Assembly (NCBI GenBank): GCA_902803385.1
Contig: CADCPT010000283.1
Location: 1 to 39,099, forward strand
DNA from: an uncultured Ruminococcus sp.
GTDB taxonomy: Bacteria; Bacillota; Clostridia; Oscillospirales; Acutalibacteraceae
DNA length: 39,099 nt
Direction: 5' to 3'
Both the position numbers and the translations under genes were made by a program. The notes beneath the pieces were generated by a model. It had not been told where the DNA came from, ran no database searches, and saw only the letters and a program-made list of their open reading frames with translations. Of the stretch, positions 1 to 35,806 are shown piece after piece (position 1 is the stretch's first letter; each line of letters starts with the position of its first letter).

Positions 1-120
1 GGCGCACTTTTATTATAGTGTTTTTTCAGAGGTGACGCGAGCAAAGCTCGCGTCACCTCTGAAAAAACAAGTCTTAAAATAGCCCGGTCGTGCCGAAGGC
101 ACGGTCTGGCGGATTGACCG
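1..120 (-). repeat. Copy A of a composite intergenic repeat family. It is in inverted orientation and truncated by the window edge. It holds a module-3 remnant (1-20), a perfect 22-bp-stem hairpin (21-67) and a small hairpin cgtgcc-gaag-gcacg (89-103).
   Basis: The reverse complement aligns module by module with 4176-4325 and 7655-7765. The shared order is: small hairpin followed by gaccgg, AT-rich spacer, TTTTTCAGrGGTG...CACCyCTGAAAAAA hairpin, then ctataaaaagtgcRcc. Confidence 0.75.
21..67 (-). terminator. Intrinsic terminator downstream of the alarmone-synthetase operon. Its symmetric T-run/A-run flanks make it look bidirectional.
   Basis: ttttttcagaggtgacgcgagc-aaa-gctcgcgtcacctctgaaaaaa is a perfect palindrome lying 84 nt past the stop codon at 151. 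Confidence 0.8.
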
Positions 121-2440: not shown

Positions 2441-2610
2441 AAAGCACTCCGTAGCAGCATGCCCTGGAGCGCATCTACCCAGCGGCTTACTTCCTATTTA
2501 TTATTAGCGGGGTTGTCGCATTAACACTCTCTCGTTCGCCCGATCGTTGCTACGCAACGACCGGGACTGCGAATAGTTTCACAGCCCTGAAAAAAAACTA
2601 TAAAAAATGG
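2441..2610. repeat. Degenerate locus of the same intergenic repeat family. It holds an inverted module 3 (2441-2490), a module-1-like hairpin cgttgc-tac-gcaacg followed by gaccggg (2545-2565), and only the right arm of the big hairpin plus the start of module 3 (2584-2610).
   Basis: By-eye alignment: gccctgaaaaaaaactataaaaaatg matches cccctgaaaaaactataaaaagtg at 7693-7716. The reverse complement of 2441-2486, gccgctgggtagatgcgctccagggcat, matches accgcagggtaggcgcactataggggcac at 7718-7746. Confidence 0.55.
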
Positions 2611-3688: not shown

Positions 3689-4162
3689 ATGAAAGTCAGA
3701 CGTGCTGAAGCAAAGGATATCCCTTATATTCTCAGGCTTCTTGTTCAGGTGGATATGGTCCATCATAACGGAAGGCCGGATCTTTTCAAGGGACCTGCAA
3801 CAAAATATAACGAGAATGAGCTAAAAACCATTCTGTGTGATGATACTACACCTGTTTTTGTATGCGTTGACGAAAACGATATACCATTGGGTCATGCCTT
3901 CTGCATACATAAGCAGATAAAAGGTGATAACGTTCTTACGGATATAAATACACTTTATATTGATGATATCTGTGTTGATGAAGCTGCGAGGGGAAAACAT
4001 ATAGGAAAAGCTTTATTTGATTTTGTTGAAGAATATGCCGCTGTCCATGGCTTCTATAATATAACGCTCAATGTCTGGACTTGTAACCCCGGTGCAGTTA
4101 AATTCTATGAATCAATGGGGCTTTCTCCTCAGAAGATAGGAATGGAAAAGATCATCCGGTAG
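3689..4162 (+). CDS. GNAT family N-acetyltransferase.
   Basis: The acetyl-CoA-binding-like segment VDEAARGKHIGKALF has the (Q/R)xxGxG/A pattern, and the size and topology fit GNAT. I chose the ATG at 3689 (MKVRRAE...), which lies 8 nt after GAGGAG. Confidence 0.75.
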   Translation: MKVRRAEAKDIPYILRLLVQVDMVHHNGRPDLFKGPATKYNENELKTILCDDTTPVFVCVDENDIPLGHAFCIHKQIKGDNVLTDINTLYIDDICVDEAARGKHIGKALFDFVEEYAAVHGFYNITLNVWTCNPGAVKFYESMGLSPQKIGMEKIIR

Positions 4163-4175
4163 TTTTTTAGTTTGT

Positions 4176-4325
4176 CAGCTCCGACAGTGTCTTCGGCGCG
4201 ACCGGATTAATAAATATTTGTTTTTTCAGGGGTGCCAGGCGCTTCGCGCCTGGCACCCCTGAAAAAACGCTAAAAAAATGCGCCGCAGGTTAGGCGTATC
4301 CCAAGGGCATTTCCTGCGGGCACAC
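4176..4325 (+). repeat. Copy B, the most complete copy of the composite intergenic repeat. It holds module 1 (4183-4206), the big hairpin (4221-4267) and module 3 (4268-4325).
   Basis: It aligns with copies A (reverse complement) and C. The big-hairpin stems differ between copies only by paired substitutions: gtgacgcgagc/gctcgcgtcac, gtgccaggcgc/gcgcctggcac and gtggcaggcgc/gcgcctgccac. Confidence 0.75.
4221..4267 (+). terminator. Intrinsic terminator after the GNAT gene, embedded in repeat copy B.
   Basis: ttttttcaggggtgccaggcg-cttcg-cgcctggcacccctgaaaaaa is a GC-rich stem flanked by T and A runs. Confidence 0.8.
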
Positions 4326-4533
4326 AAAAAAACATAGAACTAATTGGGTTTCCGTCAGAATCATTATTTTGCGACACCCCCATCTCAGAAAACACTGTTT
4401 CAAAGAAAAGCCTGTTGTATGTAATAATACCGTTATAATGCAATTATCATATGGACAAAACGCCATTTTTTTGATATTATACTATTGAAAGTGCATATAT
4501 TGATAGTTTTGAAGTTCCCGGGGGATAAAAGAA

Positions 4534-7500
4534 ATGCTAAATGTTTCATATTCATCAAGCTGTTTTTTTATTAAAAAAATCGATCGTATATTCTTTATAT
4601 CGGTTATATTTCTGATGATATTTTTGTTGTTTTCGGTTTTAGAAAACCGTAATACAGTATATGCTGCTGATAGTGAAGAACAAGACATCTCTGTAGACCT
4701 TATCAGTCATAATGACGGCTATTCTGCTGTTCTTTATGATAATACCAACGGTCTTCCGACTCCGGAGGCAAATGCTATCGTAAATACAAAAGAAGGATTT
4801 ATCTGGATCGGCAGCTACGACGGTCTGATACGTTATGACGGTAATACCTTTGAACGTATCGACTCGACTACCGGTATCGCAAGTGTTGTCTGCCTTTATG
4901 TTGACAGTAAGGATAGACTCTGGATAGGAACCAGTGATAACGGAGTTTTCCTTATGGAAAAGGGTGAGTTTCGTCAGTGGAACAAATCCGAAGGAATGGA
5001 ATCGTCTTATATCCGTTCTATTTCCGAGGACGGCAATGGTCTCATATACGTTGGTACGACGAGAGGCATCGGTACTATAAACAATGAAATGAAATGGAAT
5101 ATGATATCCTCTCCTTATTTTACGGATGATTATCAATATATGAGAAACATACAGGTCGGTCAGGACGGTCTGATATATGCCCTTACAAATGACGGTGATG
5201 TTTTTACGATCAGGTCAGGTAATGTAGAAAACTATTTCAGCCAGGACCAGATCGGTGTTGATAATATAGTCAGCATTTTTCCCGATACGGTATCTCCCGG
5301 TTTCGTATATCTCGGAACAGCTGATTCAGAGCTTTATTACGGAAGTATTGAAGACGGCCTTTCAAAACTGACCCAAACGGATATTTCGCCGCTTGCAAGT
5401 GTAAATGAATTTGAATACTTTGATGAAAAGCTATGGATCTGCGCAGAAAACGGTATAGGTATACTCAGCGAAAACGGATTTGAGGTTCTCGAAAACCTGC
5501 CTATGACCGGTTCTATCGGTAATGCTATGACTGATTATGAAGGCAATCTTTGGTTCACCTCGACCCGTCAGGGCGTGATGAAGATCGTCCGCAATCAGTT
5601 CTCGGATATTTATAAGCGTTTTGGCCTTGATAAAGCTGTTGTAAATTCAACATGTGCTATTGATGACCTGCTCTATATCGGGACAGACTCGGGAATTACT
5701 GTATTAAACAGTGATGGGGTAGTATCATCGGTACCGCTGAAAAAAGCTCAGACCGGTTCCGGCGAAAAAGTCGAAGCTGACGATCTTCTGAAGTATCTTG
5801 ATGGCTGCCGTATACGTTCTTTGATAAGGGACAGCAAAAACAGGCTGTGGATTTCGACATGGAGAAAACATGGTCTGCTGTGTCTTGATAACGGAGAGCT
5901 GACCGAATATACTGAAAAGGAAGGTCTTCTTTCTGACAGGATCCGTACTGTATATGAGCGTGAAGACGGGTCGTTTCTTGTTGCTCTTACAGGCGGAGTA
6001 AATGTTATAAAAGACGGCAAAGTCATCGAAAGCTATGGTACTGAAAAAGGAATAATAAATACCGAAACTCTTACTGTAGCAGAAGGCGACAACGGAGATA
6101 TTCTTGTCGGTTCAAACGGTGACGGCATATATATCCCGAATAAAAAAAGCGGTCTGAAACATATAGGTACAGAAGACGGTCTTATGTCTGATGTTATACT
6201 TCGCATTAAACCGGATAAGCTACGCAATCTGTACTGGATAATAACAAGTAACTCCATCGCATATATGACATCTGACTACAAAGTGACCACTATAAACAGA
6301 TTCCCCTATTCAAATAACTTCGATATTTTTGAAAACAGCAGGGGAGAGATATGGATCCTCAGCAGTAACGGCATATATATTCTACCGGTCGAAGAGCTGC
6401 TCGCAAATTCCGATATTTCTCCGGTGCATTACGGTATGGACAACGGGATCCCATGTGTATCTACAGCAAATTCATATAGTGAGCTAACATCAGACGGTGA
6501 TCTGTATATATCCGGAACGACCGGTGTCGCAAGGGTCAATATCGAAAAGCCGCTTGATAACGTCAATTCTCTCAAGGCTGCAATTCCTTATATAGAAGTT
6601 GACGGAAAAAGAGTTTATCCTGATAAGACCGGAGTATTCACTATTTCTTCAAATGTCAAGAAGCTTACGGTTTACAGCTATGTATACAATTATTCGCTGA
6701 TGACTCCCAAGATATCATATCGGCTTCAGGGCTTTGAAGATACGATCACAACAGTAAGCAGGAGTGATCTTCAGCCTGTGGATTATACAAATCTTTCCGG
6801 CGGCGAGTATCAGTTTGTATTACAGATAAGAGATTCCAGGGGCTTCGGCGATAAAACGATATCCGTTAAGATCATCAAAGAAAAGGCCTTCTATGAAATG
6901 CTGTGGTTCTATGTTGTTATTGCCATTCTTATCATATTGCTTATCATTATGATCGTTAGAATGTATATCCGCTGGAGAGTTGAAAAGCTTGAAAAGAAGC
7001 ATCAGGAAAACATGACCTTTGTCCGTGAGATCACCGAAGCCTTTGCTAAGGTCATAGATATGAAGGATAAGTATACCAACGGACATTCACTGCGAGTTGC
7101 AAAATATACCGCTATGCTTTGCAAGGAGCTCGGCTACAATGATGAAGATACAGAAAAGTATTATTATATTGCGTTGCTTCATGACATCGGGAAAATAGGT
7201 ATTCCCTCAGAGGTGCTGAATAAGGCCGGAAAGCTGACAGATGAGGAATTTGAGATAATCAAATCACATGCTGCAATGGGTTATGAAGCTCTTAAGGGTA
7301 TAAACATTATGCCGGAGCTTGCTTTGGGCGCTCAGGCTCATCATGAAAGACCTGACGGAAAGGGCTATCCTAATCACCTCAAAGAAGGAGAGATACCAAG
7401 GGCAGCACAGATAATTGCTGTTGCCGACTGCTTTGACGCTATGTATTCAAATCGTCCCTACAGAGACCGTATGAATTTCGACAAGGTTGTAAATATCATT

Positions 7501-7641
7501 AAATGCAGTGCAGGCACCCAGCTTTCAAGAGACGTTGTTGAAGCTTTTCTCCGCCTTGTGAAGAGGGGCGAATTCCGTGATCCCGATGATCATGGCGGCG
7601 GAACAACAGAGAATATAGATAATATCCGCAAGAACAGCTGA
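4534..7641 (+). CDS. Membrane sensor protein with a double beta-propeller and Y_Y_Y ectodomain, one further TM helix and a cytoplasmic HD-GYP domain. It is a putative c-di-GMP phosphodiesterase.
   Basis: There is an N-terminal TM/signal segment. About 14 propeller-blade motifs are present (for example FIWIGSYDGLIRYDG, RLWIGTSDNGVFLME, RLWISTWRKHGLL, EIWILSSNGIYILP). The Y_Y_Y-like segment is YRLQGFED...YTNLSGGEYQFVLQIRD. The second TM is LWFYVVIAILIILLIIMIV. HD-GYP motifs are HSLRV, LLHDIGKIGIP and HHERPDGKGYP. Confidence 0.85.
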   Translation: MLNVSYSSSCFFIKKIDRIFFISVIFLMIFLLFSVLENRNTVYAADSEEQDISVDLISHNDGYSAVLYDNTNGLPTPEANAIVNTKEGFIWIGSYDGLIRYDGNTFERIDSTTGIASVVCLYVDSKDRLWIGTSDNGVFLMEKGEFRQWNKSEGMESSYIRSISEDGNGLIYVGTTRGIGTINNEMKWNMISSPYFTDDYQYMRNIQVGQDGLIYALTNDGDVFTIRSGNVENYFSQDQIGVDNIVSIFPDTVSPGFVYLGTADSELYYGSIEDGLSKLTQTDISPLASVNEFEYFDEKLWICAENGIGILSENGFEVLENLPMTGSIGNAMTDYEGNLWFTSTRQGVMKIVRNQFSDIYKRFGLDKAVVNSTCAIDDLLYIGTDSGITVLNSDGVVSSVPLKKAQTGSGEKVEADDLLKYLDGCRIRSLIRDSKNRLWISTWRKHGLLCLDNGELTEYTEKEGLLSDRIRTVYEREDGSFLVALTGGVNVIKDGKVIESYGTEKGIINTETLTVAEGDNGDILVGSNGDGIYIPNKKSGLKHIGTEDGLMSDVILRIKPDKLRNLYWIITSNSIAYMTSDYKVTTINRFPYSNNFDIFENSRGEIWILSSNGIYILPVEELLANSDISPVHYGMDNGIPCVSTANSYSELTSDGDLYISGTTGVARVNIEKPLDNVNSLKAAIPYIEVDGKRVYPDKTGVFTISSNVKKLTVYSYVYNYSLMTPKISYRLQGFEDTITTVSRSDLQPVDYTNLSGGEYQFVLQIRDSRGFGDKTISVKIIKEKAFYEMLWFYVVIAILIILLIIMIVRMYIRWRVEKLEKKHQENMTFVREITEAFAKVIDMKDKYTNGHSLRVAKYTAMLCKELGYNDEDTEKYYYIALLHDIGKIGIPSEVLNKAGKLTDEEFEIIKSHAAMGYEALKGINIMPELALGAQAHHERPDGKGYPNHLKEGEIPRAAQIIAVADCFDAMYSNRPYRDRMNFDKVVNIIKCSAGTQLSRDVVEAFLRLVKRGEFRDPDDHGGGTTENIDNIRKNS

Positions 7642-7654
7642 TGCTGTTAAAAAT

Positions 7655-7765
7655 TTGCTTTTTCAGGGGTGGCAGGCGCTTCGCGCCTGCCACCCCTGAA
7701 AAAACTATAAAAAGTGCACCGCAGGGTAGGCGCACTATAGGGGCACTTTCTTCAGGGGCAATCGA
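7655..7765 (+). repeat. Copy C of the composite intergenic repeat. It has the big hairpin and module 3 but no module 1.
   Basis: It starts 14 nt after the stop codon at 7641 and aligns with copy B through ...ctgaaaaaactataaaaagtgcaccgcagggtaggcg. Confidence 0.75.
7659..7704 (+). terminator. Intrinsic terminator after the HD-GYP gene, embedded in repeat copy C.
   Basis: tttttcaggggtggcaggcg-cttcg-cgcctgccacccctgaaaaaa. Confidence 0.8.
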
Positions 7766-11833: not shown

Positions 11834-11873
11834 AGGTATTATTACATACCCTATGGGGTATATAATAATACCT
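11834..11873. promoter_or_regulatory. 40-nt near-perfect palindrome, a candidate operator abutting the -35 of the distal suf promoter.
   Basis: In aggtattattacataccctA|Tggggtatataataatacct, 18 of 20 positions are self-complementary. It ends 2 nt before the TTGACT at 11875. Confidence 0.5.
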
Positions 11874-11874
11874 A

Positions 11875-11903
11875 TTGACTTTATAGTATTAAAACAGTAT
11901 AAT
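11875..11903 (+). promoter_or_regulatory. Consensus sigmaA promoter, distal (P1), upstream of sufC.
   Basis: TTGACT-17 nt-TATAAT. Confidence 0.6.
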
Positions 11904-16503: not shown

Positions 16504-16930
16504 CAGAACATTTTACAATGAAATACTGACGGAGCATAATCGCTTTCCGGCTCATAAGCATAGTCTCGAAGGAGCTGATTTTTCCCTTGAAGGAGTCAAT
16601 CCGAGCTGCGGAGATGATATAGTCCTTAATCTTAAGGTAAGTGACGGGATAATAACGGACGGTTCATATGAGGGCAGCGGATGTGCGGTGTCACAGGCAT
16701 CAGCGGACATAATGCTTGATCTTGTGATAGGGAAGAGCATTGAAGAAGCACAGCGTCTTGCTGACATTTTTATGCGAATGATCAAGGATAAAATAACAGA
16801 TGAAGAGCTGGAAGAGCTTGAAGAAGCCGCAGCTCTGCAGGATATTTCACATATGCCGTCAAGAGTAAAATGTGCTGTTCTCGGATGGAGAACAATGAAT
16901 GAGATCTTCAGCGATGACAGTGTAGAGTAA
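16496..16930 (+). CDS. sufU: SufU-type (IscU/NifU-like) sulfur acceptor/scaffold.
   Basis: NPSCGDD, GSGCAVSQASA and the C-terminal KC motif are present. It overlaps sufS by 8 nt. Confidence 0.9.
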   Translation: MNNRTFYNEILTEHNRFPAHKHSLEGADFSLEGVNPSCGDDIVLNLKVSDGIITDGSYEGSGCAVSQASADIMLDLVIGKSIEEAQRLADIFMRMIKDKITDEELEELEEAAALQDISHMPSRVKCAVLGWRTMNEIFSDDSVE

Positions 16931-16944
16931 TGCTTTTGCTTACA

Positions 16945-16996
16945 AGCTATAGCACGTTAAGTAATATACTTGACATGCTATAGCTCTTTTTTTATT
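16945..16996 (+). terminator. Intrinsic terminator of the suf operon.
   Basis: A long hairpin has outer stem agctatagca/tgctatagct and inner stem gttaagta/tacttgac, followed by ctttttttatttt. Confidence 0.85.
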
Positions 16997-17271: not shown

Positions 17272-20200
17272 ATGAAAAAATCTATTTTTAAGAGATTTAT
17301 ATCAAGCATTCTGGCGCTGTTGATGCTTATTTCAGCGTCTCCGTTTGATATGACCGTTTTTGCTTCGGATGGATATGTCGGTATCAAAAATGTTGTCTAT
17401 ACAGACCGTTCTTCTGTAAAAACACGTTATCTTCTTAAGTTTTATAAAGAGGTATATACCAGGATTCCCGTTGAGAATTTTGACGTGCTTAATCCTCAGT
17501 ATACCTTTGAGAGAAGTGAAGTCCCGGTCGCCTTTGGACCTGCGTTGAATCTTGGAAACAATACATATCTTGAAAGATCCGATTCAAATAATCAGTGTGA
17601 GCTTATACTTAAAAACGGAGATGATATAAATCTTTCTGGTAATCAGACCCTGCTTTCTTTCTTTAAGAACAATGCAATATGTCGTATTGATATTGTCTAT
17701 GACAATAATGCTCCTTCAAATAAAGCTGATAATTCTGAGTGCCTCCTTTATACAAACAGCACTGTTGATCCCGAGGAAGCCAACCCGGATGTGTACTCTG
17801 CATCTGTCACCTTTACACCTCAAAGAAATGCTTCCGGTATCACATATGATTTTTCAAGCTGTAATGCAGTTACCTTTACATCTACTACGATCGATCCCGT
17901 TGTAGTGGAACAGCTTTGGAGAGACAGCGGTAATAATCGTCCGACTGAGTATCTTCCGAGTGCTTTCTCTTTATCGAGAACTACTGACGGTGTTAGTTAT
18001 GAGTCAGTAACTGCTGACAGTTCGTCAGTTGAACCCATTACCAGCAATGATATCAATTATATTTATAAATTCCCGTCTTATGACGATGGTAATAATAAAT
18101 ACACATATAAGGCGGTTCAGTCTCCGTCTGTTCTGGTAAGGCATGAAGAAAACAAGATAAACGACCTTAAATATGAGAATATCGGTCTGACGGATGTTGA
18201 ATTCAATATTGACTGGGATGATGCAGCGCGTTCAACCTTAAGAAAGACCATTACTCCCGCTGATCTTATTTCTTATTTTGATTTTTACAGTATAGACAGC
18301 GGAGTCGAAACTCAGCTTACTCTTGATGCATCCAAAATAGAGATCAGCGGTAATAAAGTTACTATCAAAGATGTTGTCGAGATAGGTGAGGACAATGCAG
18401 CTGTTGTCTATTACATTAAGCCTAAGAATGCTCAGATAGCTGCAAGTACTTTTTTGAATAATTATTCCGGTATTGATGATGATGTCTACGGCATCACCGC
18501 AGATAATCCGGGTGTCAATTCGGCTGTTACCGACAAGGTTTATCTTGGCAATTCTCAGAACTGCGGTTCTTTAAGGATGCTTCTCAAGGGCGATACCGAA
18601 TTCGGCGGTACTATAAACTGGAGCGATAATGCTGATTGCGATACAGAAAGAAAGGATGCCGTAACTAACGGCGCCGCGGGTACCTTTACGCTTTATCGTT
18701 ATATAAACGGTCATACGGATCTTGTTTCTCAGGTCGGCTCATGGCCTATAGATGCTCCGGACGGCGAAAATGAGGACAGCTATAGTTTTCAGTTTATTGA
18801 TATCACAAACGGCAATTCCACCGTTTTGCCTAAATACGACAATAACGGAAACGAGTATATATACTTCGCTAGAGAATCTGTTAATAAAATAACTGCCGGC
18901 GGAGTGGATTATCAGTATAATGTCAGTTATTCTGATTTCCCCACAGGAACAAACTTATACTATCCTTTCAGCTCAGGCGGAAGCTATCTCGGCCATGTTG
19001 TTTTTCCGAATAATGCCACAGTTACCAATACTGTCAGCAGCAGTATAAATATCAGGGTAGAGGCTCAGTGGATTGCTGCTGCTCTCCAGGGCGGTGAAGC
19101 GTCTGTTACATATCAGGTACAGAAATACACCGGTTCAGGCTGGACTAATGTCGGTTCCTCACAAACGATAACCGACTTTTCACCAGAACGTATGCATCTT
19201 TCTGTTGATATGGGTTCCTTTGATAAATTTGATACAAACGGAGACCTTAACAAGTACCGTGTCGTTCAGACTTCTTTAAGCCGTAAAGACAGCGGTCAGA
19301 CCGGTAATTACACCTATCCTGTTGAAATGAATTATGATGCAAACGGTGATCTCGTTGTTACCGGCGGAAATATCGTAAATATCAGCAGTACAGGTGCAGA
19401 ATCTCCTGCATCCGGTGAATCTCTTTACATCATGATCGGCGGTCATCGTTTCAAAATAAGCGTAACAAAGTCAGGGAGTAACTATGTTTATACCTATACT
19501 CTGACAGACAGTGTTCCGCTCAGGATAAATAAGGACTGGAAGAATATCATGATCAAGCGAGGAGCTGACAGCAGCAACACCGCTCTTCTCACTGGTATCT
19601 GGAATTCCAACGTAACTCTCCAGCTCAATATCTACGACTTTACAAATAACAGATATATAGCGTATACACCAAACTCCGATGACCGTCCGGCAATTACCGG
19701 ACTGGATGCTAACGGTTGTTTGGTCCTGACAAGCTCCGATATGATATCTGATACCAATGAGCGTTTTTCAAAAATTCTGCAGAATGCTCCCAGGTATGAC
19801 AAGGATGGTCATGAAAACCGCTATGAGATAGTTGAAATAAACGCAACCGGCGTTTCCGGTTTTTACAAGCTCTGCACCATAACAAATAATGACGGCTATA
19901 AGGATCTTAAAGTCGATAATATTTTCAGCGGTGACGGCGAAACGATAGAATTTGAAAAGATCTGGATAAATGACGACAAGCAGCAGTATATGACTGGCAT
20001 CGTAAATATCGAAGGCTCAGCCCGTGCTATGCCGTATTACGGTCCGGGGGAGGATAACACGGTTCAGTTTGATTTTACCAATAGCAAGATCAATGCTGCT
20101 ACAGCAGGTATGGATGATCATGATACTGCAACCTCTCTGTATAATATGTACAGAAATGCTTATTATTCAAAATGGGGTTGTTATCCCGATGAAGATACAT

Positions 20201-23200
20201 ATGTATATAATGCCCCAAGCGGAACTGATCCCGGCAGCGGTTCGGAAACAAACGGAAGCATAAAATGGAATGACCCCGGCGTTACTGTTGGCACTAAGCA
20301 TTTTAACGATACCCTGACTGATAATGATATTTCTCATCTTCAGCTTTCTGACGAGGATGCAGCATCGCTCAAAAACTATGCCGGTTATCTCGGTACGGGC
20401 TTGAGCCTTACGAAAGACAGGAGCTACAGAGCTTCTCTTAATGTAAAAGACGGCTATTCAAATGTAAATAATGATCTTTCCGATAAGCTTAATGATTTCA
20501 GAGAATATCTTCCGAACCATACAGCTTCGGGCAAATTTTTCGTCCCTGTTTCAACTATAGAGGAGACGGCGAAGTCTGCTATGCTTGATGGAAGCACCAT
20601 GCTCGGTAAGGTCGTTTCTACTGAGGATGGTAATACCCACGGAACCGAAATAACTGTCACTTCAGGCAATAATGTAGGTTTTCAGGATTGTAAAAATGCT
20701 ATTTTTGTAGACGACATTGATAGATTTGAATGGCTTTCAGGCGTTTATGCCGCTCAGTTCGGCAATTATACCCACTACTATGCCGTTCAGGAAGAACCGA
20801 CTGTTGACAACAGCTGTAAGCTTAGAAAGATAACCTTCAGAAATACAATGACCGGTATCATCAATATCAAGATCGACTTTGAATGGGCATTGGGCGATTG
20901 GCTCACTGCTGCTGCAGGAGCAGATCAGATAACCTATGTTAAGGTCAAGCTTCTTGCAAACGGACAGACCGTTACCTTCCCAAGCGGTTCCGGCACGACT
21001 GATACAATTACTATACGTGTATCTGCTGATCTTAAGACATATTATCTCCGCAATCTTCCCAAGTATGACAATAAAGGAAAGCAGATCCAGTACACTGTTC
21101 AGGAATGGGAGATACAGGGTAAGTCTGTTTCAAACGGCCAATGTGTCCTAAATGCTGACAATACCTGTACAGTAAAGGTATCTACTCCTACCACTGACGA
21201 TTATGTTAACAATAAGACTTCAAACAGCGGTGATGTTATCCCGATAACTATTTCCAATAAATTTGAAGGCAGCACAAGCATTGAGATTTTCAAGCATTGG
21301 ATCGATGACAACAATGCTGCAAACACACGTTCTGACCTTTATATTTCTCTGTGGAGACATTCAACAAACACAAGAACTCCTGTTGCTGATTCTCAGCAGG
21401 GCGAGGAATACAGATGGCATAAGGACTACAATAATGAATACGTCAATGACTGGAGATATGAATTTACCGGTCTTGATAAGTATGATGCAGATGGCTTTTT
21501 ATACGAGTATTATGTGTATGAAAACCCGACATATCTTAAACCAAAGGAATATGAGACTTCCTATAGCAATACAGGATCTCATGCTTCAGGAACATATATT
21601 TCATATAACGGCATAGATCCCGGCACAGCTGTTGTAAATGCTCAGAATCTTCCTGCAAAGCGCTGCTATAACGGAGGAACGATCACAAATCAACTTAAAG
21701 CAAACAAAACCATTACCGGAGACAAGCTCTGGCAAAAGACCGACGATCTTGTTGACAAGGACTATCCTGTTGCGGACGTATTCCTGTATAAAAAATCAAA
21801 GGTAATAAATTCCTCAGATAAATTCCCGACTACACCGGTAATGTCATCTGACGGGGGATATAAGCTTGCATATTCTGTTACCGAGGATTCTGTTGACTAT
21901 AATATTGAGCTTGTCAATATCGTTCAGATCGTAAACGGTCAGAGGAACTTCAATTTTGACACCGCATATATTCTTCCCAAGAAACAAGTCGGTCCGGGCG
22001 ATAGTGCATATACTACCATTGATGAAACCAAGCTTGTATATGTATCAAACGGAGATGCAGGAAAAAATGTTGACTTTGTAAATTGTACAGGTATAACAAG
22101 TTCTCCTCTCAACAAATATGACGACAACGGTGCAAGAGTACAGTATGATCTCACCGAAAGAACAATAAACGGTTATGCATTTAAGATAAGCAATCAGACC
22201 ATTGTCAATGAATATAATGGCGGCGATCCTGTTACTGTTCAGTTCAGTAAGCAGTGGCAGAATATGACAAATAACTATGATGCATATCCGAATATAAATG
22301 TTGTACTCAAACAGTGCTACATAGGATTGACATCTAAAACAGATCCTACGCCTGCTATCAAGGTCTCTTCGACCGTAAGCAAGGAATTTGGTCCTTCAGA
22401 CTTCCAGACAGCCGGTGGAGACTTGAATGTACCTGTCACCGATCCGAAGCTTGTTAAGTTTGCGCCTAACGGAATGCGTTTCTTCTGCTATTTTGAAGAG
22501 GAAATGACAGATGCCCAGCGGATCAGGACAACGACCTTCAGGCCAACCTATGAACTTGTAACCAAAGCTCAGCTTCTTTCCAAGCTTGCAGACGGATATA
22601 AAAAGGTATATCCCTATGCCTCAGATTTCACTACAGGAAGAGTTACCCGTCCTGAAAAGGTCTACATTATTGTAAAGAGCGGCGGAACTGCCGTAACTGT
22701 TGATAAAGATGGTAATAATCTTTCGGCAGACCTTGGCGGCAATGTTACCTCCGGTGCGGATGCTGAGGGAATGATAGAGCTTGATGTTTCCGGCGACGGA
22801 ACAATCATATGTGATATCAATGACCTTCCGAGCGGAACCTATACTGTTGAAGCTGTTAAACCAGACGGTTCGGCTGATACGTCCACACTTTGCTCATTCA
22901 TTCAGACTGACGAAACTGATTCTTCAAAGCTTCACGTTATTCTTGCAAGAGGAGACGAATTTGTTTCCGTTAAGGGAAACAACAACACCACGACCGAATG
23001 CTGTATCGTAAGAAAGGCTTCTGCAGAAACTAACAAAGGTCTCGGCTTTAACTGTACGATAGGTGATATCACACCTACAGGAGAAACTACAGCTGCAGGA
23101 TCCATAACAAACCGATACGATCCCGACGATGAAGAAAACTTTGAAGCAAATATAACCGTTACAAAGAAGTGGCAGAATTACTATACAAAAACGGCAAGCG

Positions 23201-26200
23201 GTTCACAGCTTTCTGTAAACAGTAATGAAAATGCATCAAACTCTGTTTTTGCAGATGTTCAGGATTACAGCTTTGTTCTGAGCCGTCATGCCCGTTTTGT
23301 TGATGATACTGATGCCGGAAAGAGTCTTTTCAAGGTCTGGACAAATTATAACAATACCGGAAAACCATCAATTACTGATATTAACTCAGTCGATGGATTT
23401 GCTATCACATATTCCGGCTCTTTTTATGCCTACGATTCCTCTGATGTTCCTTTGTCTGAACCTGTGGATGAGTCTCAGGTCTCATACTATATGACCGAGC
23501 TTCAATTCACAAAAACGGCTTATACATCAGGTGTTTCCGGCTATATCCCTGTAACCGTCAAGGTATTTAAGTCTGATAAAAAAGTTGTGATACATGGCCT
23601 TGCAGTATTTGCCCAGACAGGCGTCGGCTATGATTATATCGTTACTGAGGATAATCAGACAGCTCATTATAATTCGAATACTCTTGATGAAACAAACAAG
23701 CAGATAAATACTTCTACAAAATACGTGGATTTTGAGCTGAAAAACAACCTCAAGACCTTCGACCTTCGTCTTAACAAGCTGTTCGGAACGAGGTACAATG
23801 ACGGTTCTTCTGATGTTGTCAATGCGTTGGCTCCGGGAGAGTATGCAGCCTATTTCAATGAAACATTTATCGGCAGACTTAAGTTCAGGCTTGAAAGAAA
23901 GCTTGGTACTGCAGGTACATGGCAGGAATACAAGACTGTCAATACCAACAGCGGTGATATTACTCTTACAAAGAGCAATGGAATGTACAGCTGTATCTTC
24001 AGATATCTGCCGATATGTGATACAAGCGGTACAAGATATTACTATCGCATTGTTGAAACTTCACAGCCGGGTAATGACGATCATTATACCATAAGCTATC
24101 CTTCAAGAGCAGACGGAAGCTATACTACTGATATTTCAACAGAGGCTTCAACTGCTTCTGATACAGGCTTGTCGCTTGATCCCAATAATTCCGGAAACTA
24201 TCGTTCAACTCAGGATCTTTATGTCCGTAATATTTTTGAATCCAAGCGGGTGAGCATTGAAAAGTTCTGGGAAGACCATAATAATGAAGACGGCACCCGT
24301 CCGACCTCACTTGAGGTCTACCTTTATGAAAAGGTAGACAGCTCTGTGACAGGCAGTTATCCTTCTCCGAATCCGTATCTCATAACCGAAACGCTCAGTT
24401 CTTCTGAAAACTGGTCTAAGAATATCACCCTTCCGCAGTACTACTACAATGCGAGTACGCCGATAGGGGATATCAAGTACACCATCCGTGAGCAGACTTT
24501 GTCGCAGGCAAAGCAAATGCTCACCACTACCGTGCCTGATCCTCAGTATCCGGGTGATACGACAACAACAAAAACCATAACCGTGCCCGATCCTGAGAAA
24601 AAGACCGCCGCGGAATACGGCTATTCGCTGACCGGCTACGGCTATATCATAGGCGGTACAAAAAACCAGGAGGGAACAAGCAATACCTTTAATGCACCCG
24701 GAACAGCCTATCAGGGCAAGAATACTCAGGCTCTTGATGGTACAAACTCAGGTTCAGTAACCTATAATATCAATGGTGTTGACGGCTTCTACCTTGAAAA
24801 CTCCAAGCCGCGCATGGATACGAACCTCAGCTTTACAAAGGCATGGGATGATTCCTCTGACAAATGGGGCGAAAGACCTGATTATTATTACATTAAGGTA
24901 GTCCGCAGATCAGAAAATGAGAATGACGCTCCTGCCGATCCGGAAGCACCTTCGGCTGATCCGGAAGCAGATGCAACAACAACTCCTTATGATGTAGTAA
25001 AGTATACCTACAGCTATACATCAGGAAATGAGTATCTCATATCAGCGTCTGACGGCACAAACACTTATACCGCAGATGCTTCGACCGGAGTTATTGCTAT
25101 CCCTAAGACCGTCAATACCGTGAATATCACACATCTTGCATATGGTGTGAGTGAAGGTGCGACAGATCAGATCAACGGTACATGGTCGCAGTATTACTAT
25201 ACTGTTGTAGAGTGCGATGAGTACGGCAACGACATTACCGCAAAGCTTACCTACAGCACAGGTAACAGTACATCTGATACAAGAACACTGAATACTTCCA
25301 AAAAGCTTACATTCAATTATACTGTCGGCTCCACCTATACAAAGACTTATTTCCATCTGAGAGTAAAAAGAACCAGTGATAATGAAGTCGTCAAGACTGA
25401 TATCAACGGTGTTCCGCTGAAAATGGTCGTTACCTACAGTAAGGACGGAACGATCTACACTGATGAATACGCCGCCGGCGGAGCACAGCACGGTATTGTT
25501 GCCGATGGTGTTATTGTTGTTCCTGTTCCTGCGAATGATGTTACGGTCGTAAGTGCTGTAATAGACGGCTTGCCCTTCGGTTCAAAGAACGGAGGTACAG
25601 TTACGCAGTACACTTACACTGTAGATCAGTGCGATTCAAGCGGTACGGAACCCAGAAACGGTGTAACGATAAACAGTATAGTTTGTTCTGATTCCGGCGT
25701 ACAGAAAGCTGCCGTTGATATGACATTTACAAAGTCATGGGATGAGAATGCCGTAAGAAACACACTTCGTTCCGATAATATGTACCTCAGGCTTTATCAG
25801 AAGCAGGAGGGCGTCAGCGGTGCGGCTGTTCCTTATTATGACGCTTCTTCATTGACTCTCACTATAGGTGAAACAACTTATTCATCTGTCGGCGGTTTGT
25901 TTACCATTCCTTTGGCTGATGCATCAGAAAGCATTACCGGTTCCATATCCGGTCTGCCGTCCGGCGATTTCCTGTCAAACGATACTGATGGATATTCTGT
26001 CTGGAAGCCTTATATCTACTACCTGGAAGAATATAATAACGATTCCGGAACTCAGAAGATGGATGCTGCAAGCCCGTATATTCCGTCATATGACGGTAAT
26101 ACGACCCCGAACGGAAGGGTCGCTCCGTTTGAAATAACGCAGGCTGATCCTGAGGATGAAAGCTCTGCATACACAAAGGCTGAGCTTTCAAGGAGGATAA

Positions 26201-29200
26201 AGAATTCCCTTGAGCCTACAGAGCACATAATGCAGAAGACCTGGATAGATGACGCTGAGTCGCAGGATTCCAGAACTGCATATACCGTAAAGCTGCAAAG
26301 AAAGGCTGGTGTGGCTGGCTCATGGAATGACGTTTCGTTCTCAGCCGCAGGCGACGTCAGGTATTATGATGATAGTACAGAGGGTTCCCCCTTGCCGATT
26401 GCTGATGGAGGAACAACTGCATTTACCCTTTTAGCCGATAAGCTCAATGTTATATTCAAGAACCTTCCGAAATACGATGAAAACGGCGAGACCTACTATT
26501 ATCGAGTTGTTGAAAGCATGGTCGGTACAAATAATGTAGTCGGTTCAGACAACGATCAGACAAAGCGTTATATGTTCCAGATACCGAACGGCACATATGT
26601 TTCAAAATGGCACAGAGGTACTGAAAACTATTATGTTGACTATGTTGATACTCCGGCCGGTGAAGACACAATTTCAAAGACCGAGATCAGAAACGAAATT
26701 GTCAAGAACACCGTCAGCTTTGTGCATATTGAAGCGAAAAAGGTCTGGAATGACGAGAATAACCTTTACGGCACCAGACCTGAAAGCATAACCTACCAGC
26801 TAAAGCGTAGGATCAAAACTATTACAAAGACCGGTGAGGGAGACGAGGCCGTTCTTGAAGTTACAAAGTCAGAAGACACGACCTTCAACAGCAAAACAGA
26901 CGATACCCAAAAGACTGTTTCTGAGGATGATTCCTGGACTGCCCACTGGAGCCACTGCGCAGCCTTTGATGTACACGGCTCAGAGTATGAGTATTATGTT
27001 GAAGAACTCAGTGTTTCCGGATATGACCAGTCCGGGCCGGAAGTAACCACTACAACTGACGTAAACAGTGAGCTGACACAGACCAATACCTTTACAAATA
27101 CTCCCACCAATACAGAATCTGATCCTGTTTTAACAAACAACAGATACAGACTTGATGCAACAAAGGTCTGGAGCGACCAGAACAATAACTTTGCCCTTCG
27201 CCCGGCTAAAGTGACTTTCACCCTTTATTGCAAGTATGACATCTGGGAATACAGGGACGAAGAGGGAGAGGCCATAGCGAACCCGACTCCCGAAAACCGC
27301 GGCACTCTTACAAAAGCCGACGAAGGTTACGATCAACCTGTGTATTCCGCTGCCGTAGGCGATGATCCTGATGATCCCGATTATGTTCCGGAGGTTGTAA
27401 GTGCAGTTTACGGTAGGCTGTCTGCGGCAGATAGAGCAAAGCTTGTTCAGACTCTGACAGTTTCAGAAAAGGTCGGTTCTGATACAAACACTTGGCGCGT
27501 TACATTTACCGGACTTCCGACTTCTGTAAATACCTCGGCTACCGATATGCTTGCAGGTAAGAGTGTACCCGTTACATATTACGTTGTCGAGACTTTCAAG
27601 GATTCATCAGATAATGACATTACAGCTACCGTCAAGAAGACCTATCGCTGTGCTGATGCGGATGATTCCTGCGAGTCCTCCGAGGTGGCTCTGGGCGGAG
27701 CCGACAAAACGGGGGATAACGGTCTGAGTCTCACCAATACCCTTGATACCCGTGATATCACCGTTACTCTAAAGTGGGTCGATAACTCTTACGGCAATAA
27801 TAAGGCAGACCGCGATTCACTGCATTATAATGTTGCAGTTTCCCTCACTAACAGTATGCTTGCTTCCACTGCTTCAGGCAAAACTGACGAAGGGCTCTAT
27901 AAGGAAACAAAGGTAATAGATACCACACATTGTAAAACTCAGGACAGTGATCCGATTAAACAGGGCGTCATTTTCAAGGATCTTCCGATCTATGATGCAA
28001 GCGGCAATATTATTATCTACAGTGTTTCCGAGGAGCTTACAACAGCTACTGCAGTCGCTGCCGATCAGAACGGTACCTTCAATGGATCCGGTTCGTCTGC
28101 TGCAGCTGAATTCACTCAGAATACATCCGCGGATAAGAGACAGTACGGATATAACGGAAGCTGCACAATGAATACTGCTGCGGGGTATGGTTCTGACACA
28201 TATGTAACTCAGTACAATATCACAAACGAACTGCCTCTTACTGCATTTGATGTTCAGAAAAACTGGATAGACTTTGATAACAGGTATTCCCTCAGACCAA
28301 CAACAATAACAGACGGTAATACCACATCAAGCAGGACAGATTATTCTACTCTTTATCTCTCGCTGCAGAGAAAGAGCGGAGAAGCTTCATATGCAGCGCT
28401 TGAACCGAACACTGCCGCTAAGAAAGAGGACAGGTATACTGCGGCTTCGTCCGGCACTTCAACAGGCACCTGGACATACACCTACACAAAGCTTCTGAAA
28501 TATGATAAGAACAATATCATATATTCATTCAATATCGTTGAGACTCAGCATAGATCATATGAAGCACCCAGATACTGCACTTCGGGTAATTATGATACTG
28601 TGGGTGCTGCATCTACTCAGGAGCTTACAGGTGATTCTCTTACTGCGCTTGCCAACTCAGCAGCGAAGTGGAACGGCACAAACAAGCTTTCTGCTAAGAT
28701 GCAGGTCACAAATAAGCTTGACACCCGTGAGATCAAGGTCACAAAGACCTGGAATGATAACGGCTATGCAAATGATGATTCATCTGTACAAAACGATCTG
28801 CATTATAACATAGCAGTTACCCTCAGCAATTCCGCATTAGGCTGTAATGAAAATAACAGGCACGATAACAGCGGCAAATATAAAGAGACCAAGGTGCTTG
28901 CCGCCAACAGCACTGATGCACTTGTTTTCAGGGAGCTGCCGAGATACTTTAATGACGGCAGCGAGATAGTTTACAGCATTGCCGAGGCAAAGAATGAAAC
29001 TACTGCTGCGGCAACGGGAACTGATGTCACAGCAACGCTTGAGACCTCCGCTGCATCGGATGTTGCTGCAAATGTATTTACCTATGATACTGTAAATCGT
29101 AAATACGGTTATGTCGGAAGCTGTAAGGAACGAAGAGACAGCAGCGCTACTCCTGTAGTAATGCAGTATGACATTACAAACACCCTTCCGCTTACTGATG

Positions 29201-32200
29201 TTGAAGTGACTGTTTACTGGGTGGACGATGAGGATTATCATAAGTATGCAACAAATGACGACAACAGAAAAATAACCTACACTGTCACAAGGTCTGTTGA
29301 AAATACGAATGATAACGAAAAACCGTACAGTAAAGTGGATACTGAGGATTACACTAATGCGGAAGTAGTTTATAGCGATCTTACAAATCAGCTCGTATAC
29401 AACTATGGAAACGAAAAGTATACCTACAGAGTTGAACAAAATCATCTTACAGGTTATATTACCGACTATCCTCCGGCAGCAAATTCCGAGGGAATAAATA
29501 CCGATAAGCAGACTGCCCAAGCGGTAGAAAAGGTTTCAGGTGAATCAGGCAGCGGCAAGACCCAGATGAACATCCGAAACACTCAGGTGACCGCTGATGT
29601 TGATTTTACCAAGGTCGATAAGACCTATAAGGATGAATTCAGCACAGCAACAGGCTACAGCCAGAAGGTCATCCCGGGAACAAGCTTCGATCTTAAAAAG
29701 TGGGATAATGACGGAAATGATGGTAACGATGTATCGATCCCGGTCACCCGTACTTCAACGACTGATAACGGCAAAACGAGATACACCTACACCTTCAACA
29801 CCTCGGGAACGGACTATATCGTTGCCGATGACTTCGGCGAAGTCAATTTCAAGGGTCTGCCGTTGAACAAATACTATCTGAAGGAGCTTACTGTTCCCAA
29901 GGGATTTGTTCTCGATACGAACAAGCTTGTATTCGAGCTTGACGAAAAGTGTGTTCTTGACCCGACAAACTATCCTGGCGATACGAGCAATGCAATGAGT
30001 TATGATTCAAAGCTCACCTTGCCCGGCGATGAACATCTTATCGCTGATGCAGAACAGCCGAGCAGTCTGTCTCTGACAAAACAGGGTATGGACGAAAACG
30101 GCGATATGGTTCCGCTTGAAAAAGCGACTTATCAGCTGTTGAGGCTCATCCCGTTCGAGCTTAACACCAACACAACGGTCACAGCGGCCGCCGAGACTGC
30201 CGCTCAGAACAGTGGCGGAACAAAGACAGCCGAGCAGTGCTACCTTGAAAGCGCAGCTAATGCAGTCAGGAATACGCCCTCTGATGTCAGCAAATACTGG
30301 ACATCTAGCTATAAGGATATCAATAATTCAGCTCAGACGACCACTTACCAGACAACTGTAAATGGCACTATACAGGCAAATGACCTTACCTTCGGCACAT
30401 ATGTATTCTATGAGGTCCAGGCGCCTGTGGGTTACAATATTGATCGCACTCTGGAGCCTGTTACGATCAATGCACAAACTATCGCGGCAGACTTCCCGTC
30501 TGTATCACCGCCGTACAGCTTTACATCAGTATATAAGCTGACGGAGGATACAACAGACGCTGCCGATGCAAGAGACACCGTGCATATCGATCCTCAGAAG
30601 GATGCGCATGTCCAGGTACAGAAAACCGACGAATTCGGCAATGCATTGAATGAAGCTGAATTTGAGCTGTATTATGATCCGGAGATCGAACCTCTTGTGA
30701 CCCCGAAATCTGACAATGATTATATTTTCTTTACTGATGTAAAAGAGAACCGTTGGATAACAGGTACAATAGAAACGTCTTCACCTAATAAGGGTAGGTT
30801 CAACATAGATGATGAAAATGCATTTGTCTATGCCTGCTATACTCTGTCTGATAACAGTACATCTATTGTGAAGATGGATGAAAGGTATGTTGTTCATTTC
30901 AATTCTGGAGATCAGGATTATGATGTTATCCATAAGATCCAACCTCCGGATAATGCTGTCAGTGTTTTCTTTATGAATGCTGAAACACTTGAAAGCTGTA
31001 CCAATAGGACTGTTGAAATGCCGCTGAAAAAAGGCTATGGCTATAAGAGAAGTGATAATACAACAACTTCTATCGGGGGTAAGTCAACATATGGTCTTAC
31101 AGAGTGGAAACTTACAACAAATGATCTGCTTGATGATGGTGTTACGGTTTCTTCAACTGTAGAATTCAAGCCTACCAATAATAAAGTAGTTATCTGTCTC
31201 GACAGTGGTTATGACTGGGATGATCTGCATATTTGCTTCTTTGATTCATCTGATAATCCTGTTGGTCAGACATTCCCGGGTTATATGCTTGAAAACTATA
31301 GCGGCATTAGAATCCAGAGCGGAGTATTTTATGAATTGACCATTCCTGAAGGTGCTTCTAAATTCAGCCTTAATAACGGTGCAAAAGAAAACGGTGATAT
31401 GAAATACTACAGTACAAATAAGTATAGTATTCTAACCAGTGCTGACTATCAGAATGGCGGCAACTATTATCATTTCACAGGAGACTTTACACAGGTTGGA
31501 GAAATAAAGGTATTTACTCTGGAACAATATACGAGTGCAATGCCCAGAACAGTAGCTTCAGGATCAAACGGTGAGATCTCAGATAATGACTATGTTTATT
31601 TCACTCATCCGGGAAGTCCTTATCAGTCGAAACTGTACGCATACTTCTACAACGCTGATGATACAGAATATCAGGCATGGCCCGGACTTCCTTCTGAAGG
31701 GACATATGTAAATGAGTATAGTCAGAATGTTTATAAGTTCAGGATTCCTGATGGTTATAGCTATGTTATTTTCAATGATAATAGTGGTAATCAGATACCT
31801 GCGAGTAATTCGAGTGAAAAAGTAGCTGCTGTAAGAGGTCGGGGATATTATATTAATGGCAATACTCTTGGACATTGGGTTCAAGCTGGCTTAGCTGTCA
31901 CGGAAACCTATACTGCGCTCTCTTCTACACTCGGTCTTGAAAAAAACATGTACATTTGTGAAACTTCAGGAAACTGGGATAGAATACATATTCTCTTCTA
32001 CGATTCAGACGGAAATGTTATCCACCAGTCGTCACCGGGTTACATACCGCAGTACATTGGAGTAGCCTCTGTATCCAATTCAAGCGGCAAATGCTACAGC
32101 ATTGTTATTCCGGATGATGCCGCAAGCTTCAAGGTCGTGAACAGTGATAATAACGGCATAGTAGCCTCCTCCTCCGCAGCTGTTTACCCCGGCGGCATTT

Positions 32201-35071: not shown

Positions 35072-35761
35072 ATGAAAAAAATAACACGAAAATCATTAGT
35101 GATCGCTTTTTCTGCTGCAGCTCTTTCGCTTGCACTGGTATTTACAGTCTGGGCGTATTTTGCGGCGCATGATGATAAGAATAATGTCTTTACTATCGGT
35201 AACATCGGAACGGTTACAAATGCTTCTGAAAGCCGTCAGATTTCTGAAACGTTTTCATCTCCGGAGATACAGGCTGTAAATGAAACCGTTACCAAAACCG
35301 TTAGCGTGAGGAACAATTCGTCTAACAAATGCTTTGCCCGTATGTATTTTGACTTTTCAGACAGTAAGATAAGAGATAATGCAAAAATATATGTCGGAGA
35401 AACAGAATACAGCTGGTCGGATTTTATAAGTACAGCAAAAGGTGCTGGTATCAATGGCTGGAAATATATTGATCCGAGTGAAAATAATACAGCTCTTGCA
35501 GGGTATTTCTATTATATGACGGCACTTGATGCAAAGAGCGGAAACAGTATTCCCACAACTCAGCCATTGTTTACTTCCGTAAAAACAGATTTCAGAAAAG
35601 ATACTGTTCCGGATGGTCTGTCTCAGGAGGATTTCATTAAGAACTATAATATAATAGTTTACAGTGAGACTGTTCAGACTGTAGAAACGAGCACAGGACT
35701 CGATTATTCATCAACAAACAACTGGAAGGAAGCTTGGCAAAGCTTCCTAAAGGTTACATGA
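35072..35761 (+). CDS. Second TasA/BsaA/camelysin-like protein with a SipW-dependent-type signal peptide.
   Basis: The N-terminus MKKITRKSLVIAFSAAALSLALVFTVWAYFAAHDDKNNVFTIGNIG has a textbook 'AYF..' junction followed by N-x-F-x-x-G. Later motifs are NGWKYI, GYFYYMTAL and PLFTSV. The ATG at 35072 lies 11 nt after GGAGGA and 5 nt after the upstream stop. Confidence 0.75.
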   Translation: MKKITRKSLVIAFSAAALSLALVFTVWAYFAAHDDKNNVFTIGNIGTVTNASESRQISETFSSPEIQAVNETVTKTVSVRNNSSNKCFARMYFDFSDSKIRDNAKIYVGETEYSWSDFISTAKGAGINGWKYIDPSENNTALAGYFYYMTALDAKSGNSIPTTQPLFTSVKTDFRKDTVPDGLSQEDFIKNYNIIVYSETVQTVETSTGLDYSSTNNWKEAWQSFLKVT

Positions 35762-35764
35762 TCT

Positions 35765-35806
35765 AAAAAAGTCTCAGGGCGGCTTTACCGCTCTGAGATT
35801 TTTTAT
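35765..35806. terminator. Bidirectional intrinsic terminator between the TasA-like pair (+) and upp (-).
   Basis: aaaaaagtctcagggcgg-cttta-ccgctctgagatttttt has A and T runs on both sides. Confidence 0.85.

Follow-up and report, generated by a model that had tools for sequence, protein, structure and literature searches.

A dispersed family of modular hairpin repeats with REP/BIME/REPIN-like organisation in an uncultured rumen Clostridia species

The 39,099-nt contig CADCPT010000283.1 of an uncultured Ruminococcus sp. (the whole stretch analysed, hereafter the window) holds several copies of a dispersed intergenic repeat, which we take to represent a family of non-coding elements put together from separable hairpin modules (M0, M1, M2 and M3/M4) in one uncultured rumen Clostridia (Acutalibacteraceae-like) species. 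The family comprises hundreds of copies (order 10^2), has sharp edges and both mosaic and clustered arrangements, is absent from the sister species sampled, and keeps the pairing of its hairpins. On balance, we lean towards a lineage-specific hairpin repeat family of the REP/BIME/REPIN kind that spreads at the DNA level and has incidental effects on RNAs. The initial annotation of this DNA had recognised a dispersed composite intergenic repeat family (three copies and a degenerate locus), a description that our analysis bears out and that metagenome depth extends to order 10^2 copies. It had argued for an RNA 3′-end element and had offered a MITE- (miniature inverted-repeat transposable element) or REP-like element as one option; the evidence laid out below favours that option, in its REP/BIME/REPIN-like form.

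In copy B, the modules follow each other in the order M1, AT-rich spacer (~14 nt), M2, linker, M3 and M4. M1 consists of a short tail (GTYC in the family; GTCC, GTTC, ATCC and GTCA were seen) and an imperfect palindrome, CCGACCG-NNNC-NNN-GNNN-CGACCGG, of together ~29-33 nt. M2 is a 47-nt perfect palindrome, T5-6-CAGRGGTG-N19-CACCYCTG-A6, with N19 made up of 8 nt, a 3-nt loop and 8 nt; its outer 13-nt arms are conserved, and its inner 8-bp stem is variable and always complementary. The M2 stems of copies A, B and C measure 24, 23 and 22-23 bp, each with a 3-nt loop. The linker reads C(AC)TATAAAAA and M3 reads GTGCRCC-GCAGGKTA-GGCGYAY, followed by M4 (CCCAAGGGCAYTTCCTRCGGGCRCAC) as a further conserved part. 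M0, an extra hairpin module with the consensus GGGGCTGTCGCATTAACACTGCCCC, emerged from the flanks of other copies just outside the M1 boundary; it lies directly 5′ of M1 in many family copies, is degenerate at copy D, and is found in neither A nor B. Of the three-module architecture proposed initially, M1, M2 and M3 are thus all present, with the amendments that copy C has no M1 and that M4 and M0 join the set. The loci proposed along with it are real as well, with refined bounds (A 1-114, B 4174-4325, C 7643-~7762), and the degenerate locus is double, consisting of two partial copies placed head to head in opposite orientation. The parts of one of these, D2, were assigned by alignment with B, C and fragments of two other copies. 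The copies and their parts are as follows.

1-114, minus strand: copy A, truncated inside M3 by the contig start; start of M3 at 1-7 (GGCGCAC, the reverse complement of GTGCGCC), linker at 8-18, M2 palindrome at 19-69, AT-rich spacer at 70-82, M1 at 83-109 with its 5′ tail reaching to 114.
2445-2508, minus strand: copy D2; M4 at 2445-2469, M3 at 2470-2491, linker at 2492-2508.
2509-2609, plus strand: copy D, degenerate, with the 5′ arm of M2 missing; M0 at 2509-2533 (GGGGTTGTCGCATTAACACTCTCTC), M1 at 2534-2565 (stem CGTTGC-TAC-GCAACG), remnant of the M2 3′ arm at 2580-2597, linker at 2598-2609.
4174-4325, plus strand: copy B, 152 nt, the sole complete copy in the window.
4174-4205, plus strand: M1 of copy B, tail GTCA followed by the imperfect palindrome CCGACAGTGTC-TTC-GGCGCGACCGG, with two T·G pairs in the inner stem.
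4220-4268, both strands: M2 of copy B, a perfect 23-bp palindrome, GTTTTTTCAGGGGTGCCAGGCGC-TTC-GCGCCTGGCACCCCTGAAAAAAC.
4278-4325, plus strand: M3 and M4 of copy B, ATGCGCCGCAGGTTAGGCGTAT followed by CCCAAGGGCATTTCCTGCGGGCACAC.
7643-~7762, plus strand: copy C, without M1; spacer at 7643-7656, M2 at 7657-7705 (core 7659-7703), linker at 7706-7713, M3 at 7714-7735, diverged M4 at 7736-~7762.

The repeat is not due to chance. Its half-site TTTCAGRGGTG occurs 10 times in the window with at most one mismatch, as compared to 1.08 expected occurrences, and the M1 pattern CCGACCG-N3-C-N3-G-N3-CGACCGG has four matches versus 0.03 expected. A covariance model returned A, B and C with E-values of 2e-29, 2.7e-26 and 1.8e-23, as it must by construction, the same copies having built the model; it scored the degenerate locus at 12 bits (E 1.7) and found nothing else across the 39-kb window.

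Copy number was read from the summed depth of metagenome contigs placed on the three copies, relative to flanking single-copy genes. In each of eight runs from bovine-gut, gut and sludge metagenomes, 42-153 contigs cover the element only, confirming that additional copies exist beyond the window. The depth of M2 is ~50-165-fold that of the flanks (1375-1414 versus 11.5 in run X1), and the depth of M1, taken at copy A, is ~100-400-fold in four metagenomes (4682 versus ~12 in X1; 1898 versus 5.4 in X2). As contig depth on the element is far above that of the flanking genes, the intergenic family is of order 10^2 copies. The listed element-bearing contigs match the host contig in depth (e.g. 10.3-12.7 versus 11.9), and therefore most copies probably belong to this one genome. 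Depth likewise delineates the repeat: it drops from >1300 to ~12 at a sharp 5′ edge at position 114, has edges at ~4178 and ~4325-4329 for copy B, and piles up between 7643/7659 and 7705/7735-6 for copy C.

The repeat also leaves its mark on assemblies. The window, itself an entire contig, begins within copy A; independent assemblies from other samples (L005 1, L011 1) break at the same base or in the copy C hairpin. Besides the window contig, no fewer than three assemblies end inside a repeat copy. Exact-protein look-ups aimed at extending the contig beyond copy A or its right end brought up the same contig or shorter ones only. The repeat is thus a systematic cause of assembly breaks in this rumen lineage, and knowing the family helps to close genomes.

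The modules combine as a mosaic. By depth, M1 is two to three times commoner than M2, and copies devoid of M2 were seen at locus D, in one DNA contig present in three runs, and in two metatranscriptome contigs, the latter two of which could be reverse-transcriptase skips over the hairpin. One contig carries two elements head to tail, and several contigs contain inverted junctions. A 140-nt 'skip' allele at copy B turned out to be another locus sharing a 36-nt motif, and so provided no evidence of excision. Just 3′ of copy B, at 4346-4381, lies a 36-nt stretch, GGGTTTCCGTCAGAATCATTATTTTGCGACACCCCC. With 3-5 differences, it recurs at no fewer than two other places in this genome, one of which again directly follows an M2-less copy; the stretch may represent another module, or a promoter or regulatory region that these loci share. 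Copy B itself sits between a GNAT gene (stop codon at 4160-4162) and an HD-domain gene (start at 4534). The stop codon of the latter, a gene encoding 1035 aa, is at 7639-7641, 2 nt before the start of copy C. Copy C lacks M1 because this stop codon abuts it, and the end of the gene may owe its shape to the insertion of the copy or to a deletion that came later.

Within the DNA compared, the family is restricted to a narrow lineage. In ~63 kb of non-redundant DNA from three sister species (84-90% identical methionine aminopeptidase), where about five M1 copies would be expected at the window's density (three in 39 kb), no module and no synteny were found. Contigs of the sister species from different assemblies (L020-L025) repeatedly stop at two places in one locus, ~13.6 kb and 20.4-20.5 kb, which suggests repeats or strain variation there. 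Rfam, which the initial annotation had proposed for comparison, gave no match at gathering score and, at E≤10, only generic microRNA-hairpin models far below threshold. Plasmid and phage collections held no match, and a scan of viral contigs returned zero. In the JGI metagenomes, the full hairpin had no match and the M3 pattern three chance matches in high-GC DNA. Peptides from all open frames of the element had no match at E≤10, and the element has apparently never been called as protein.

A variable-gap hairpin scan of genome contigs yielded at least four matches in unrelated bacteria (Actinoplanes, Prevotella, Cytophagales, Saprospiraceae). These hairpins (L001 5583-5623, L002 6780-6820, L003 7289-7329 and L004 2180-2218) share the outer arms and the polarity of T-run and A-run (TTTTCAGGGGTG…CACCCCTGAAAA), and those of Actinoplanes and Prevotella lie directly after stop codons; they are probably chance or convergent pattern matches.

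The paired substitutions reported initially for the inner stem of M2 hold up. Across A, B and C, five pairs have changed on both arms (6 cells), and the 22-bp core has no broken pair, an outcome equalled by 1 of 500 shuffles; pairing in these three copies is strictly Watson-Crick, with no wobble pair. At the level of the family, with copy A as reference, variant frequencies agree between the two arms in four runs. Because palindrome contigs align in either orientation, such frequencies are no proof of pairing for rare variants, and only pairs with frequencies summing to more than 100% were used. Pair 35/53 gave sums of this size in each of the four runs (in X1, 87% + 87%), pairs 38/50 and 40/48 in X2 and X7. 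Since changes in one arm cannot give such sums, both arms must have changed. Double transversions, which lack a wobble intermediate, account for three of the four pairs that vary (A-T to C-G twice, C-G to G-C), a pattern that would fit the copying of one M2 arm from the other and that such copying may explain more easily than stepwise compensation in RNA.

M1 stems differ between copies and still pair, as had been claimed. The stems CGTGCC/GGCACG of A and CGTTGC/GCAACG of D do so outright, and that of B is held by two T·G pairs. Seven M1 sequences were compared, of which the window supplied three and contig ends, single or near-unanimous, the other four; they revealed four kinds of inner stem (TGC/GCA, TTG/CAA, CTG/CAG and wobble intermediates), with three pairs changed on both sides.

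Such compensatory change had been read as a signature of selection on structure. However, it is common in REPINs, which are DNA mobile elements (PMC3116915); because these show the same pattern, kept pairing is no proof of RNA function. Arm-to-arm template switching is, besides, a known route to perfect inverted repeats (PMC7202029, PMC8604942). As a caution on method, compensatory change in a palindrome alone is not evidence of a functional RNA.

The same double-sided changes are nevertheless what one would expect of an RNA 3′-end element that is co-transcribed with its upstream gene and whose hairpins are selected as RNA or, in a weaker form, of a stabiliser of the 3′ untranslated region (UTR), an RNase III site or a source of small RNAs. 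Copies A, B and C begin 1-36 nt past a stop codon, in the direction of the gene, with no other terminator between the three upstream genes and the element. RNase III cleaves substrates of this kind, perfect duplexes of 22 bp or more. Inner-stem T·G pairs in the M1 of copy B and of three other copies work only on the gene strand. Against this stands the lack of a U-tract after M2 on either strand, with M1 being ~20 nt away from the nearest U-run. The position of copies 3′ of a gene and in its orientation, which the initial annotation had taken to argue for a 3′-end function, is known for three copies only, and the fourth locus, D/D2, occupies a divergent promoter region between NUDIX and DD-carboxypeptidase genes. 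Moreover, the outer stem of M1 pairs only on the other strand, the element has no Rfam relative, and no more than 0-4 element-bearing contigs were present per metatranscriptome run, despite up to 24% of the sampled words from the surrounding 10 kb being present in the richest run. These contigs are unstranded and too sparse for mapping RNA ends. Two of them (706 and 976 nt, from one metatranscriptome run) span the whole of M2 and one continues for 230 nt more, which fits read-through, with DNA carry-over being possible. Taken together, we consider an RNA 3′-end element unlikely.

More specifically, M2 is not an intrinsic terminator. It resembles one in being a GC-rich stem-loop beside homopolymer runs just 3′ of genes, but the runs are reversed, with T before and A after the stem (T6-stem-A6) on both strands, so that a U-tract is never 3′ of the stem. 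In contrast, the window's own terminators are of the form A-stem-T, as exemplified by 35755-35800 (AAAAAA-GTCTCAGGGCGG…CCGCTCTGAGA-TTTTTT, between convergent genes at 35761/35815) and by 16930-16995 (hairpin and T-run), and the long hairpins in sister genomes are built likewise. The M2 stem is also two to three times longer than the stems of the window's own terminators. The reading of the element as a terminator with extra modules does not hold, and the polarity of the flanking runs illustrates that not every hairpin directly 3′ of a gene is a terminator.

Within the element, only M3/M4 and UUUUUAUAGUUUUUU take the shape of a canonical terminator, on the strand opposite to the flanking genes. 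This raises the alternative that the function lies on that strand, with the M4/M3 hairpin and its U-run stopping antisense or convergent transcription that arrives from downstream, or with a short RNA encoded there. A terminator scan flagged the minus-strand M3 hairpin together with TTTTTATAGTT, and the minus-strand folds of B and C place the U-run directly after the hairpin, a long hairpin followed by U7 in the case of B. Minus-strand folds are equally or more stable in four of five M3/M4 variants and six of seven M1 variants. For M1, the opposite strand gives a helix of 13 bp in which 91.8% of cells pair, as compared to 77.6% on the gene strand: in all seven sequences, an invariant tandem reads G·U/U·G on the former and A·C/C·A on the latter. 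The T·G pairs of copy B, from which a plus-strand RNA had been argued, therefore no longer decide the strand. One copy has a wobble working only on the opposite strand, and the strand evidence is mixed. Opposite-strand function is nonetheless quite improbable in our view. The genes flanking B and C all lie on the other strand, leaving no known transcript that would use the terminator; M2 and M1 would fall past the point of termination; the G·U tandem is invariant, hence its pairing is not proven; and G·T is also tolerated in single-stranded DNA hairpins, so that the asymmetry fits a DNA mechanism, too.

A host function at the DNA level would make the palindrome a binding or cruciform site for a dimeric protein, such as a nucleoid protein, gyrase or a regulator; sites of this sort have been proposed for some REP/BIME classes. 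The strict Watson-Crick symmetry of the three window copies, identical on both strands, would suit such a site, as would the GC-rich core between T-run and A-run with its AT-rich flanks and the conserved outer 13-mers. Yet free variation such as that of the inner 8 bp is uncommon in binding sites, and the loop is asymmetric and conserved relative to its flanks: it reads TTC or TTT, with the letters of GAA at only ~3-7% each in X1, and the palindrome is therefore not free to flip. Furthermore, the family is not found in the sister species, which argues against a conserved host function. We regard a host binding site as very unlikely.

This brings us back to a DNA-level repeat of the REP/BIME/REPIN kind, and to how far the known classes resemble it. 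In REPINs of Pseudomonas fluorescens and its relatives, the inverted ends are conserved, the spacer is variable and forms a hairpin, and compensatory changes are frequent (PMC3116915). M2 parallels them in its conserved inverted ends (13-mers), its spacer that keeps both length (19 nt) and pairing, its five inner pairs changed on both sides, and the matching arm frequencies across the family; common to both are also hundreds of intergenic, lineage-restricted copies occurring as singlets, in tandem and in clusters. Unlike in REPINs, the M2 13-mer is not itself a small palindrome and carries no GTAG tag, M2 spans 47 nt instead of ~70-110 nt, and the host is a Firmicute. BIME/REP elements of enterobacteria are composed of palindromic units plus other motifs. 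The present family is similar to them as a mosaic of short palindromic and non-palindromic modules that occur in variable combinations and both orientations, intergenic, often just 3′ of a coding region and possibly transcribed into 3′ UTRs; it differs in its unrelated sequence and in having one perfect 22-24-bp palindrome with a T-run/A-run polarity.

With REP families of the GTAG and CGTC type, M1 has in common a ~30-nt palindrome, a short unpaired 5′ tail, high copy number and an extragenic location, and in several copies its junction reads C|GTCC, containing CGTC. CGTC families, however, have 8-9-bp stems opening with A/T pairs, 4-5-nt loops and a CCA tail (PMC3733652), as opposed to the GC-rich 13-bp stem of M1, its 3-nt loop and the lack of CCA. 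Non-autonomous elements derived from IS200/IS605 have, at either end, imperfect subterminal hairpins that lie on one strand, and they insert 3′ of a constant target of 4-5 nt. In the present family, the best folds of M1 and of M3/M4 are on one and the same strand, the minus strand, and the flanks of 6-8 copies, a small sample consisting in part of consensus sequences, have no tetranucleotide in common. An integron attC site, an imperfect palindrome (R''/L''-L'/R') that has a GTTRRRY core and extrahelical bases and lies 3′ in cassettes, was rejected: extrahelical bases are missing from the hairpins, which are perfect, their edges lack GTTRRRY, and the neighbours are housekeeping genes of up to 1035 aa. 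Among Firmicutes, Streptococcus pneumoniae has BOX (boxA-boxB-boxC) and the Bacillus cereus group has bcr1, modular repeats which are short, hairpin-forming, multi-copy, intergenic and often co-transcribed with their neighbours, and bcr1-type MITEs carry terminal inverted repeats and target duplications. The element is like these in being a short, modular, hairpin-forming, multi-copy intergenic Firmicute repeat, and unlike them in sequence; terminal inverted repeats or target duplications were not found here.

Several observations weigh against a REP/BIME/REPIN-like family spreading at the DNA level. The inverted repeats sought at the ends of copies, in line with the MITE option of the initial annotation, are no better than those of shuffled sequences (371-1390 of 2000 as good), the only resemblance between left and reverse-complemented right ends being the 9-nt GTSYGCCCG. 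No direct repeat indicative of a target-site duplication exists at the flanks of copy B (…TTTTTTAGTTT / AAAAAAACAT…), the sole copy with both ends in the window. A GTAG or CGTC tag together with the stem, loop and tail that go with it is missing from M1, and GTAG is found only inside the M3 loop. REPs and REPINs go with a RAYT gene (Y1 HUH transposase) that the repeat flanks; the 39-kb window contig, the one contig of the genome covered here, encodes no transposase. Contig data revealed no insertion polymorphism between strains, the apparent skip allele belonging to another locus, and the copy numbers, being sums of metagenome contig depth, may include relatives that carry the same family. Moreover, perfect 22-24-bp stems in three of three window copies exceed what neutral decay would leave. 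Finally, the three copies with known gene context each follow a gene in the same orientation, and this co-orientation could reflect selection for a 3′-UTR role.

With these points taken into account, a repeat that spreads and is maintained at the DNA level still seems to us the better explanation. Its hairpins would act as single-stranded DNA structures recognised by some enzyme, and/or the arms of M2 would be kept identical by arm-to-arm template switching. In a co-transcribed copy, the hairpin, with a predicted stability of -42 to -45 kcal/mol (-45.5 kcal/mol for the M2 of copy B as RNA from either strand), may serve as a block to 3′ exonucleases or as a target of double-strand-specific RNases, rather than as an intrinsic terminator.

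A bolder version would make the family the non-autonomous half of a REPIN/RAYT-like system in Oscillospirales that mobilises single-stranded DNA hairpins, with the ~30-nt palindrome as its signature and M2 as cargo. Recognition might then rest on the invariant tandem G·T/T·G on one strand of that palindrome plus the GTYC tail. We consider this doubtful. REPIN/RAYT-like associations between repeat and host have been described in Proteobacteria and Cyanobacteria; if true, this case would extend such long-lived associations well beyond these phyla. High-copy hairpin repeats of the REP/BIME type are, to our knowledge, little documented in Firmicutes, and this family, with its several hundred copies and its strand-specific wobble signature, is a possible system for studying repeat spread in Gram-positives.

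The genes around the repeats are an ordinary chromosomal set of a spore-forming Firmicute. They encode a RelA/SpoT-type synthetase, an Rsm22-like methyltransferase, a NUDIX protein, a D-Ala-D-Ala carboxypeptidase, a GNAT protein, an HD-domain sensor protein, a methionine aminopeptidase, SpoVAD and the Suf system. Among named relatives, those nearest to the methionine aminopeptidase (84-87% identity) are annotated as 'Clostridia bacterium' and 'Acutalibacteraceae bacterium', and window DNA is present in bovine, sheep, gut and sludge metagenomes. At 11834-11873, in the stretch that separates spoVAD from the suf operon, a 40-nt AT-rich palindrome (AGGTATTATTACATACCC-TATG-GGGTATATAATAATACCT) has the look of an operator; it overlaps strong promoter-like sites (11875-11903). 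Further downstream, an open reading frame at 17272-34041 (5589 aa) contains Cna_B, SpaA-type and CBM26 (starch-binding) domains as well as internal repeats ~5.6-6.1 kb apart; its product is probably a giant cell-surface adhesin or starch-binding protein.

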